Below, in pieces: positions 9,312-10,972 of a stretch of 46,833 nt of DNA; positions within the stretch are counted from its first letter, which is position 1, and each line of letters starts with the position of its first letter. Under the pieces are notes generated by a model. The model was given only the letters and a program-made list of their open reading frames with translations. It was not told the DNA's origin and did not search any database. The stretch is from the sequence record NC_054637.1. One strand, given 5' to 3'. Position numbers and translations under genes: made by a program. Source of the stretch: Escherichia phage vB_EcoS Sa179lw.

Positions 9312-9682
9312 ATATGCTTGAACTGGTTGATGCATATCTTCAGGATGCCGGATTATACGATGGCTGGACTTCGCAGTTGCAGTTCTGGAATGACACCGGA
9401 GACGGCAATGAGCAATTTATTGTCCTGCAATCCAACGGCGGCACACAGGTGATGGATGGCCTCGGCGGTGACTTCTATTTCTCGCTGTATATTGTCGGCA
9501 AACAAGGACAATACAACGTTCAGGATGTTGATGCGAAAGCCAATGAAATTATCGAATACATCAAGACGCATCCGATTGATTCATGCGTGAACTACATCCA
9601 GTTGCAGGCTCCGCTCGGACGACCAATGTTGACGGAAGAGAAGCGCCCTGTGCATGAGTTGCTTTTGCGGGTTGTGAAATAA
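9308..9682 (+). CDS. Putative tail terminator / neck protein, 124 aa
   Basis: Synteny; last gene before the terminator and major tail gene. Confidence 0.45.
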   Translation: MNMLELVDAYLQDAGLYDGWTSQLQFWNDTGDGNEQFIVLQSNGGTQVMDGLGGDFYFSLYIVGKQGQYNVQDVDAKANEIIEYIKTHPIDSCVNYIQLQAPLGRPMLTEEKRPVHELLLRVVK

Positions 9683-9686
9683 ATAA

Positions 9687-9712
9687 AGCCGCACGAAGCG
9701 GCCTTATTACTG
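9687..9712 (+). terminator. Candidate terminator
   Basis: Hairpin GCCGCACGAAGCGGC followed by a weak T tract. Confidence 0.4.
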
Positions 9713-9736
9713 GTTTAAGCATTGCCAGCGTGCTTT

Positions 9737-9801
9737 CTTAACATCCAGCCCCGTACCCATACATACCCCTACATATGATTGCGATAATGCTGGATGTTAA
9801 G
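9737..9801. repeat. Perfect 13-bp inverted repeat (CTTAACATCCAGC / GCTGGATGTTAAG) separated by 39 bp
   Basis: Read directly; lies in a 540-bp non-coding gap. Confidence 0.85.
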
Positions 9802-10174
9802 TGTTGTGGCTCTGGTGCCTCCAGATTGCTGGTCGGTAAATCCAGCAGGCAATCGCAAAACCAAATGGAGTGTATCTTTACCTTGCCGCGTGCGCATAGC
9901 CGCATTACCACAACGGAAAGAGCACTGAGACAAACGTCTTTGTCGCCTGCGCAAAGGGTTCGAGTTCCACTGATATGCGCCAATGCCCTCACCTGTTGTG
10001 CGCCCATTATTAATCACACCGGGCCAGTGCGCCGAATTTGTTTACAAGGAATCGGAAGACCTTGCTGATTTACAGGTTATTACGCCGCCATCAGAACAAC
10101 ATCATCGTTTGCATTTATCTTTGTGGTCAGTTTCTAAAAACCCGCAAAGTCGCTCACGAAAACTATCTGAAATA

Positions 10175-10222
10175 CAATCTACACCACAAAATAATACCTG
10201 TCAACACCTGTGATATAATCAC
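10175..10222 (+). promoter_or_regulatory. Candidate late promoter for the major tail gene: AATCTACACCAC ... TGTCAACACC ... TGATATAAT (extended -10)
   Basis: Extended -10 TGA+TATAAT at 10211-10219; poor -35; same architecture as 12184-12234. Confidence 0.5.
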
Positions 10223-10255
10223 CACGTTAGCAGCTAACACAATTCGGAGATCGAA

Positions 10256-10972
10256 ATGGCTATTTGTGCAAATGATAAAGGAGTTCTGGTCGGTCGCATG
10301 ACCAGACTGTTCCTTGCTGAAGGGTGCGGTGACGCAGTTCCGGAGGCAGGAGACTGGAAGTATTTAGGTTCAACCACCAGTAAAGGAGTTGACTACTCGC
10401 CGCAGACCACTACGTCGGAAGCGGATACCGCTGGCGGCTTTGTTTCCACTCTCGTTACCAGCTCTGATATGACCATCAGCGCAGAGGTGGAAATCCGCAA
10501 GAATGACCCGAGCGATGAGTTTGGATTCCATCGTCTTGTTGAGATTTACGCCACTGAACTGAAAGCGCGTCGCCAGCCCTCTCTGTGGGTGCGTCAGGTT
10601 ACTGGTGCAACTATCGTTACCGCGTACTGCAACATTACCAGCATCAGCTACGAAGGTGGCACGAACGACATCGTCACTGGCAGCCTTGAGTTCAAGGTTT
10701 ACGATTCTGACAGCGTTACCGTCGAAAGCCTTGAACCTCTGGCATTCACTACCGACCTGCAATCAACTGGTAGCACTGGCAGCCCGTTAACTGTTGCTGT
10801 TGAAGGTGGCGTTGCTCCTTACACTTATGTATGGCGCAAAGATGGTGTGGTTGTTGGTAGTGAGTCTGGCGCTTCACTGGCAAGCCCAACCGCTGGCGTG
10901 TATACAGTTACCGTTACCGACTCATCTACTGACCCTGAAATTATTATCAGTACGGCCTGCACAGTATCCTGA
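10256..10972 (+). CDS. Major tail protein with C-terminal Ig-like domain, 238 aa
   Basis: Position upstream of tail assembly and tape measure genes; C-terminal segment VAPYTYVWRKDG...GVYTVTVTDS is Ig-like. Confidence 0.6.
   Translation: MAICANDKGVLVGRMTRLFLAEGCGDAVPEAGDWKYLGSTTSKGVDYSPQTTTSEADTAGGFVSTLVTSSDMTISAEVEIRKNDPSDEFGFHRLVEIYATELKARRQPSLWVRQVTGATIVTAYCNITSISYEGGTNDIVTGSLEFKVYDSDSVTVESLEPLAFTTDLQSTGSTGSPLTVAVEGGVAPYTYVWRKDGVVVGSESGASLASPTAGVYTVTVTDSSTDPEIIISTACTVS

Follow-up and report, generated by a model that had tools for sequence, protein, structure and literature searches.

In transfer-messenger RNA (tmRNA; SsrA, RF00023), whose tag in Escherichia coli is ANDENYALAA, nucleotides U85 and A86 have a role in setting the frame, and positions 5-9 of the ssrA degron overlap determinants for SspB and ClpX/ClpA. 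Two-piece tmRNAs, found in alpha- and beta-proteobacteria and in cyanobacteria (RF01849-51, RF04321), carry the tag template and the tRNA-like function on separate, base-paired RNAs that stem from one host gene and pair via the acceptor stem and helix 2. Among (pro)phage RNAs, the anti-small RNAs or sponges AgvB and AsxR of enterohaemorrhagic E. coli prophages, often located in late regions, base-pair with an abundant host regulatory RNA, and RNAs of this type mimic the mRNA targets of Hfq-dependent small RNAs. Species 1 and 2 of phage T4 (rnaC/rnaD) are stable RNAs located among phage tRNA genes of the same strand, presumably co-transcribed with these and processed; to our knowledge, no tag frame or ssrA complementarity is known for RNAs of the rnaC/rnaD type. 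We are aware of no natural RNA with tmRNA as its base-pairing target, nor of one that provides a tag template in trans. Phage tmRNAs described so far are complete genes or, in mycobacteriophage DS6A, a form consisting of the tRNA-like domain only (PMC4131195, PMC11915505). Here, the non-coding gap before the major tail gene of Escherichia phage vB_EcoS Sa179lw (NC_054637.1; the whole stretch of 46,833 nucleotides is referred to as the window) was analysed computationally. Its main content is, with good computational support, a noncoding RNA unit on the minus strand that combines a tmRNA-like tag module with a leader antisense to host ssrA.

Like tmRNA, the gap RNA has an alanine resume codon without start codon or Shine-Dalgarno sequence, preceded by U-5 and A-4 in the positions of E. 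coli U85 and A86. The tag has 10 residues, begins with AND and ends in small hydrophobic residues and Ala; double stop codons in a helix-5-like loop are followed by UAAUAACCUG as in E. coli, and H-type pseudoknots lie downstream. Unlike tmRNA, the phage RNA has no acceptor stem, T-arm, G3:U70 pair or CCA end and thus cannot be charged. Two small pseudoknots are found instead of PK2-PK4, the antisense leader stands in for the PK1/helix-2 region, and all tmRNA models remain under their gathering thresholds (18-39 bits). The separation of tag template and tRNA-like function is shared with two-piece tmRNAs, and the best partial Rfam matches are to permuted models; however, the phage piece would join a complete host tmRNA, via the host's own tag region. 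DS6A likewise carries a partial tmRNA, thought to interfere with host trans-translation (PMC4131195; PMC11915505), but there it is a tRNA-like domain with no tag frame, whereas the gap RNA is a tag frame with no tRNA-like domain. From AgvB and AsxR the gap RNA differs in its proposed target, tmRNA, and in carrying a replacement coding module.

Tag module and antisense leader

Copies of the module were collected by scanning IMG/VR with the first-pseudoknot motif and from annotated phages, resulting in 75 distinct copies. Distinct tag frames (n = 25) comprised 22 from these units and those of P1, phiEa21-4 and Berlingot. All 25 frames consist of 10 codons and a stop. Third positions vary in 10 of the 10 codons, first positions in five and second positions in six; one peptide is coded by up to five synonymous versions and several peptides have multiple synonymous codings. 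Codons 1 and 10 specify Ala throughout, by two to three different codons, and the other two frames of the tag stretch hold stops. Because third positions vary most, synonymous codings recur and the length is fixed, the frame is constrained at the peptide level. The phage consensus, A-N-D/E-x-x-F/V/Y-L-A/M-V/A-A, retains the N-terminal AND and the terminal Ala, while positions 5-9 are consistently altered relative to the host tag.

The frame thus has the resume codon and the hydrophobic, Ala-rich C-terminus of a tmRNA-type tag and no start signal: neither AUG, GUG or UUG nor a Shine-Dalgarno sequence was found, and an in-frame UAG lies 7 codons upstream of the resume GCA. In the preceding linker, A-4 and A-3 never vary, U-5 is conserved to at least 90% and the length is 12 nt in all non-Felix types (alignment A3). 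A permissive Rfam scan gave matches on the minus strand only, all sub-threshold (tmRNA_permuted, 28.3 bits against a threshold of 47; beta_tmRNA, 18 against 84). These partial matches align exactly the tag stretch, from AUAAAU through the ten codons and both stops to CCUG.

Downstream, the stop codon in helix 5 is followed by pseudoknots, as in tmRNA, but two instead of three. In an alignment of 26 diverse copies, helix 5 and the two pseudoknots had standard pairs in 97.4% of cells, and 11 of the 22 pairs were changed on both sides (74 cells). The observed values were reached by 0 of 500 shuffles, and slid controls gave at most 45%. In helix 5, pair 85:108 is A-U in 13 sequences and G-C in 13. 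Four pairs of the first pseudoknot were changed on both sides (C-G to U-A, A-U to G-C, G-C to A-U); in the second, pair 149:172 is C-G, G-C or U-A and stem 2 co-varies in 4/4 pairs. The strand of the module is fixed by the invariant G-U pair 146:175 of the second pseudoknot.

Comparison of E. coli K-12 ssrA with the phage RNA gave two matches, one sense (the tag region) and one antisense (the 5′ leader). The leader target, nt 68-107 of ssrA, reads UAAAAAGCCGCAAAAAAUAGUC followed by GCA AAC GAC GAA AAC UA and covers the PK1 3′ strand, the resume codon and tag codons 1-6. Alignment scores were used in place of RNAduplex energies as the statistic for leader pairing, since U/G-rich leaders pair promiscuously and shuffles already reach about -28 kcal/mol, which makes the alignment score the stronger statistic. 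Ten leader types scored 30-44 against the ssrA reverse complement and 14-19 against sense ssrA; shuffled leaders had a mean of 17 (best of both strands; standard deviation 2.5), and 0-1 of 2000 reached the observed score. A reading of the leader as a sense homologue of tmRNA nt 13-35 was rejected, as the sense scores are at noise. Predicted RNAduplex pairing extends over ssrA nt 54-107, with -40 to -53 kcal/mol for most leader types and -25 to -30 kcal/mol for the shorter Felix-type and L052 leaders.

Watson-Crick complementarity to the same ssrA site, 22-38 nt, is kept in all 26 diverse leaders. Complementarity in most sequences is found at 26 leader columns, whose identity averages 0.93; the spacers between the blocks differ in length and sequence. 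Pairing of the leader with its own downstream RNA, including its own tag, had duplex energies at background, with no comparable complementarity. Codons 3-6, to which the 10-bp seed binds, are exactly those at which the phage tag departs from that of the host. The host target site is near-invariant among 77 ssrA variants of Enterobacterales, which fits the host range of the carriers. The leader thus has significant, collinear complementarity to an accessible tmRNA site (the single-stranded mRNA-like region and the PK1 3′ strand). The category of a trans-acting antisense RNA against host tmRNA is proposed in the present analysis and corresponds to no curated family.

A tRNA-like domain was searched for in the module and its surroundings. 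ARAGORN called no tmRNA or tRNA in the window, nor adjoining the element in the related loci L001-L006, L008-L030 and L251, and between 9660 and 10260 no tRNA match was obtained on either strand with ARAGORN or RF00005 (E ≤ 10), so that neither the 9803-9914 unit nor the plus-strand stretch 9895-9985 qualifies as a tRNA gene or pseudogene. The tag module contains no acceptor stem (7 bp, 5′ and 3′ ends), G3:U70 pair or 3′ (N)CCA. The minus strand of the gap has no T-loop of the GGUUCGA type; the single occurrence of such a motif (9958-9970) belongs to the plus strand and is in a variable insert. With ARAGORN empty and the Rfam scores sub-threshold, a tRNA or tmRNA gene was rejected. In a two-piece tmRNA, the acceptor piece would lie upstream in one precursor; only the promoter is found upstream of the module, and in the cmscan alignment to the permuted model the tRNA-domain pairs are unsatisfied and only the tag stretch aligns. 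A permuted tmRNA with GGGGCUG (9752-9746) as acceptor 5′ strand was similarly rejected, there being no upstream T-arm or CCA and the GCUG belonging to the 13-bp hairpin. A plus-strand tRNA-like stretch at 9895-9985 (GCGCATA...GGGTTCGAGTTCC...TATGCGCCA) was dropped, since it lies in a cassette insert that differs completely in relatives.

Predicted transcription unit and further elements of the gap

The non-coding stretch measures 573 bp (9683-10255), from the end of the neck gene open reading frame (ORF) at 9682 to the start of the major tail ORF at 10256. The original prediction, made by a model from the letters of the stretch, had described a long gap with unconvincing ORF candidates, and this was borne out. 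The four gap ORFs of 76-97 amino acids had zero matches in Pfam and PHROG and run across stretches with many indels among relatives (alignment A1); protein-coding readings were therefore ruled out. Matches to the gap were obtained in 855 phage records. In 19 relatives at least 80% of its length is matched, with 75-96% identity and nearly always without annotation; these include Cedarrivervirus Sf11, Skatevirus KFS-SE2, Deseoctovirus C1, Swiduovirus swi2 and ASO78B. The most conserved part, 10002-10167, lies outside the inverted repeat that the original prediction had singled out; that reader had seen neither the conservation nor the minus-strand information with its tag module and anti-ssrA leader.

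From its sequence, the gap is a predicted minus-strand noncoding RNA operon of ~490 nt with its own sigma-70 promoter and intrinsic terminator; coordinates of these and the other features are listed in Table 1. The RNA is predicted to start near 10169, 0-5 nt ahead of GUUUUCG. Equivalent promoters lie directly upstream of the element in Felixounavirus HY02, phiEa21-4 and the IMG/VR contigs L010, L045 and L080, so that in five independent contexts (window, HY02, phiEa21-4, L010/L080 and L045) a sigma-70 promoter sets the start 0-5 nt before GUUUUCG. The minus strand was fixed as the RNA strand because the G-U pairs of the repeat hairpin and the pseudoknots fit only there. The 488-nt RNA folds better than 100 of 100 shuffles (z = -2.8).

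Table 1. Features of the gap before the major tail gene, in window positions
Feature	Position	Strand	Sequence and basis
Putative extended -10 of the divergent major tail gene promoter	10211-10219	+	TGATATAAT; read from the sequence, invariant in relatives
Sigma-70 promoter of the noncoding RNA	10176-10204	-	TTGACA (10204-10199), 17-nt spacer, TAGATT (10181-10176); 10/12 matches
5′ leader, reverse complement of host ssrA nt 68-107	10125-10165	-	UAGUUUUCGU GA GCGAC UUUGCGG G UUUUUA GAAA CUGACC
Single-stranded 12-nt linker before the resume codon	10113-10124	-	ACAAAGAUAAAU; U-5 and A-4 match E. coli tmRNA U85 and A86
Tag reading frame without start codon	10077-10112	-	GCA AAC GAU GAU GUU GUU CUG AUG GCG GCG UAA UAA; ANDDVVLMAA and two stops
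Helix-5-like hairpin, stop codons in the loop	10065-10094	-	CUGAU...AUCAG; 99% of cells paired
First H-type pseudoknot	10032-10064	-	CAAGG/CCUUG and CCGA/UCGG; 99-100% paired
Second H-type pseudoknot	10002-10031	-	CGCAC/GUGUG and GCCC/GGGC, loop AUUAAUAAU; covariation
Cassette hairpin	9908-10000	-	arms CACAACAGGUGAGGGCAUU (10000-9982) and CAGUGCUCUUUCCGUUGUGG (9927-9908), insert unrelated in relatives; A1, fold
tRNA-shaped multi-branched unit	9803-9914	-	closed by GUUGUGG/CCACAAC; fold, A1
13-bp repeat as conserved RNA hairpin	9737-9801	-	G-rich 39-nt loop on the RNA strand; A2, RNAalifold
3′ element	9710-9736	-	AAAGCACGCUGGCAAUGCUUAAACCAG, hairpin GCUGG/CCAGC; almost invariant, little covariation
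Intrinsic terminator	9677-9703	-	GGCCGC UUCGU GCGGC(C), then UUUAUUUAUUU

The promoter that the original prediction had placed at the 3′ end of the gap is plausible on account of its extended -10, but this plus-strand motif was not among the entries of the consensus promoter scan. The two back-to-back promoters partly overlap (10176-10219), the -35 of the RNA promoter (10199-10204) lying 7-12 nt from the extended -10 of the tail gene. Both the minus-strand promoter region and the whole back-to-back stretch are unchanged in eight relatives (A1). From this arrangement, the two promoters may compete or be coordinated. At the other end, the unit closes with GGCCGCUUCGUGCGGC and the run given in Table 1 (9703-9677). 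The terminator hairpin was entered as plus-strand in the scan, and can also serve the plus-strand neck gene. In relatives, tRNA genes lie ahead of this hairpin or replace it; several relatives have one or two on the minus strand (Arg with Ser or Met; Ile or Met alone), between the conserved stretch and the neck gene.

Elements 3′ of the tag module follow the same order in relatives, that is, a long hairpin, a tRNA-shaped unit and a highly conserved 3′ module with the repeat, with variable content (A1). The arms of the cassette hairpin read CACAACAGGUAAGRGCAUU and CAGUGCUCUUUCCGUUGUGG among relatives and surround an insert that is unrelated between close relatives. Long-stem arms of this kind (CACAACAGGTAAGRGCATT ... 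CAGTGCTCTTTCCGTTGTGG) were observed in the window, in Skate (L480, ~855-920) and in St11Ph5 (L252, ~2430-2520), and the insert GGGTAATGTCAGCCTTGGTTCGAAGTCGAAAGACATGCGGTAATACCCAGCC is identical in siphophage Skate and podophage St11Ph5. Skate, the type species, retains the promoter, hairpin cassette, tRNA-like unit and 3′ module and has unrelated sequence in place of the tag module. Given this swap and the insert common to Skate and St11Ph5, the locus behaves as an array of exchangeable RNA cassettes; the sequences suggest mobile RNA cassettes with conserved linkers. The 5′ arm of the cassette hairpin resembles the tag linker, CACAA(C)AGRUAARNGCA, and the 3′ arm is 72% complementary (13/18) to the linker and resume codon (9907-9924 versus 10110-10127). 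Alternative pairing of the cassette arm might, judging from these letters, mask the resume codon.

The tRNA-shaped unit of the window has no canonical T-loop, G3:U70 pair or CCA end. A true T-arm is present in related units of Skate and of an E. coli prophage. In the prophage of E. coli 55989 (L251, 3745-3880), the unit that follows the tag module shows, besides a D-loop-like stretch, a canonical T-arm (GCCGGTTCGATTCCGGC); RF00023 aligns these to the two ends of the model with 20 bits (E = 4e-6), and CCA directly follows CCACAAC. This unit may be a tRNA-like-domain unit in cis. In Kuttervirus PhaxI (L006, 1500-2800, minus strand), the tag module has several tRNA-like units on its flanks, such as GGTGAGG...GTGGTTCGATTCCGCACCCTCGCCA; ARAGORN called none of these PhaxI units, despite good T-arms and closed acceptor stems.

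The perfect 13-bp inverted repeat with a 39-nt loop was re-found exactly as the original prediction had described it, with arms CTTAACATCCAGC and GCTGGATGTTAAG (9737-9749 and 9789-9801; 13/13 nt complementary). It exceeds chance, since the longest perfect inverted repeat in 300 shuffles of the gap (loop up to 100 nt) was mostly 7-8 bp and at most 11 bp (1/300). Among 14 relatives, stem pair 14:94 is C-G in eight, U-A in four and U-G in two, and pair 20:88 is G-C in 13 and U-A in one. Because the U-G wobbles would be A-C mismatches on the plus strand, the repeat is a minus-strand RNA hairpin. Its original reading as a possible structured RNA thereby proved correct, and the covariation analysis across related phages that had been suggested gave pairing changes in support of the repeat hairpin, helix 5 and both pseudoknots. 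A regulatory operator, also considered there, found no support. A gene remnant was rejected: in homologous phages there is no protein gene here but the noncoding modules seen in the window, and in several of them tRNA genes of this strand come next.

On the RNA strand, the loop of the repeat hairpin (9750-9788) contains the runs GGGG, GGG and GGGG (UAGGGGUAUGUAUGGGUACGGGG), and in DS8 GTAGGGGTAT is duplicated in this loop. RNAalifold places a small inner hairpin there; a G-quadruplex is conceivable from the G runs. The 3′ element may possibly form a small pseudoknot with AAGCA/UGCUU. The end of the 3′ module, AAACCAG, lies 7-12 nt before the first tRNA gene in relatives and before the terminator here. 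From this position, the 3′ hairpin module with the 13-bp repeat most likely serves processing or stability.

Distribution and annotation of the element

The 166-nt module alone was matched in 767 of 50,697 phage records. Carriers are Ackermannviridae (Kuttervirus and relatives), Ounavirinae (Felixounavirus, Suspvirus, Kolesnikvirus), Schitoviridae (Gamaleyavirus), Chaseviridae, Punavirus P1 and many siphophages, with Salmonella, Escherichia, Klebsiella, Erwinia, Shigella, Citrobacter and Serratia as hosts. Among 5426 complete E. coli genomes, 656 (~12%) contain the element, at 150 chromosomal (prophage) and 554 plasmid places, the latter including P1-like plasmids. A host ssrA fragment or attP was rejected as its identity, because in these genomes it is never at the ssrA locus and strictly lytic phages carry it as well. 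In lambdoid prophages, a long hairpin precedes the module, which is part of the late leader between the Q and holin genes; in an E. coli prophage with this arrangement, the strand of the element is that of the late genes. In HY02, it lies within a tRNA array and has its own promoter.

In P1, the module (68791-68979; L004, 2501-2689) has the tag ANDDLMMVAA and is located directly after an annotated 'dicF-like region', upstream of trnA and trnT, within the leader of the C1-repressed ban operon. Two elements related to host RNAs thus lie side by side. An identity with DicF, prompted by this annotation, was rejected, as Rfam gives no DicF match in the window.

The module is essentially never annotated: in PGAP and depositors' annotations it is blank or overlaid by small hypothetical coding sequences (CDSs). 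Small plus-strand 'hypothetical protein' CDSs with assigned ribosome-binding sites cover RNA modules in Skate (L480, 613-1127), Bas77-81 and KFSST1, and are probably spurious. No Rfam family reaches its threshold on the module, and no description of the RNA was found in the literature, searched in full text and with the tag peptides as words. In OR544125.1, labelled 'Acinetobacter phage vB_AbaM_AB4P2', identity is 89% over the whole gap, the leader fits enterobacterial ssrA and the RNA is overlaid by an annotated 432-nt 'hypothetical protein' CDS. This record may be wrong in its host label or in its designation as a myovirus.

Proposed mechanism and alternatives

We favour, at somewhat less than an even chance, a model in which the RNA binds to host tmRNA and supplies a tag template of its own in place of the host's, forming in trans a two-piece tmRNA of phage and host parts. 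The model draws on computed transcription signals, conservation, covariation, tag constraint, leader complementarity and the absence of a tRNA-like domain. The extreme 5′ end of the RNA (UAGUUUUCGU ... GCGAC ... UUUGCGG ... UUUUUA ... CUGACC) would pair with host tmRNA nt 54/68-107 and occlude the host resume codon, the first six tag codons and the PK1 3′ strand. Twelve nt past the intermolecular helix, the phage resume context (U-5 A-4), the 10-codon frame, the helix-5 stops and the two pseudoknots would follow. A ribosome rescued by host Ala-tmRNA/SmpB would then resume on the phage frame and terminate at the phage stops, and rescued chains would receive a phage-type tag in place of ANDENYALAA. 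The spacing from helix to resume codon is a constant 12 nt in the phage RNAs, and that from PK1 to resume codon is 11 nt in E. coli tmRNA. Pairing in vivo, decoding of the phage frame and the effect of the altered tag are inferred; the model is the one that uses every conserved feature.

Several points weigh against it. Transcript, pairing and tag are all predicted from sequence, and the 26 leaders share homology and hence are not independent cases. RNAduplex energies are only moderately above shuffles for P1, L080 and the Felix type, and in the fold predicted for the free molecule the leader is partly paired with the RNA's own GCAAACGA, which would compete with the trans pairing. Among the matches listed, there were no leaders adapted to ssrA of the Aeromonas/Pasteurellaceae or Yersinia type, only host ssrA flanks and chance matches. 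In addition, the template would be held to tmRNA solely by an imperfect helix at the moment when the ribosome must load, and the phage tags are still degron-like, so that the gain from a swap is not evident.

The main rival, to which we give an appreciably smaller chance and which on balance is unlikely, is a pure inhibitor: the same leader-ssrA complementarity would block or destroy host tmRNA by occluding the resume codon, unfolding PK1 or inviting RNase III cleavage. Tagging and decay of phage products would be shut down, the tmRNA-like body being no more than a scaffold or a decoy that draws in tmRNA-binding factors such as S1, RNase R or SmpB. Phage propagation can be limited by tmRNA tagging in some settings (PMC6207430), and the tRNA-like-domain-only tmRNA of DS6A, a reported tmRNA inhibitor (PMC4131195), is a precedent. 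An inhibitor leaves unexplained, however, the start-less 10-codon frame with its synonymous, peptide-level conservation, the invariant U-5 A-4 context and the constant 12-nt spacing; moreover, if rescue were blocked and no substitute template offered, ribosomes needed by the phage would be trapped. The anti-ssrA leader is in turn left unexplained by an improbable alternative, a self-contained split tmRNA in which the tag module would act with an aminoacylated phage tRNA-like unit (9803-9914), independently of host tmRNA. Such units do lie 3′ of the module in the phage group of the window and in prophages, that of 55989 having the canonical T-arm and partial RF00023 match described above, and others are found near the element in Kuttervirus and G7C-like phages. 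Yet the 55989 score is far under the gathering threshold of 47, and the window unit, without canonical T-loop, G3:U70 or CCA and with ARAGORN empty, is highly variable among close relatives and is not beside the module in Felixounavirus.

Slightly less improbable than a split tmRNA, though still quite unlikely, is a stable structured RNA with another role, such as a host-protein sponge or anti-defence decoy, its likeness and complementarity to ssrA being due only to descent from a rearranged ssrA fragment. The locus is an exchangeable cassette array in which Skate has the same frame minus the tag module, unrelated phages have inserts in common, and many RNAs of phage tRNA regions lack assigned roles. 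From descent alone, however, it would not be expected that the conserved leader blocks are the ssrA-complementary ones (26 columns, mean identity 0.93) or that the tag frame evolves like coding sequence. That the gap is a non-functional spacer, or the remnant of a decayed gene or tRNA, with a repeat that is incidental or part of a terminator or operator, is barely credible: the window does lack the tRNA genes found at the same locus in relatives, but the 75-96% identity there, the core module in unrelated phage families, the covariation in helix 5, both pseudoknots and the repeat, and a 13-bp repeat beyond chance all contradict it.

In its conservative part, the result amounts to a large family of structured RNAs that lacks annotation, with members in 767 sequenced phages and ~12% of complete E. 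coli genomes. This RNA family with tag module and anti-tmRNA leader is widespread and was previously unrecognised; the mechanism proposed for it is testable. It is possible, although we lean against it, that the whole family parasitises ribosome rescue, a chimeric two-piece tmRNA writing a phage tag on every rescued chain while exchangeable cassettes, among them tRNA-like units and long-stem hairpins, move between unrelated phage families. If the favoured model holds, at least five phage families, P1 and lambdoid prophages would rewrite or silence the host degradation tag in lytic growth. On the family-wide reading, protein quality control (recognition by ClpXP, SspB and related factors) would be reprogrammed during infection, in a process, trans-translation, that is nearly universal in bacteria and a drug target.

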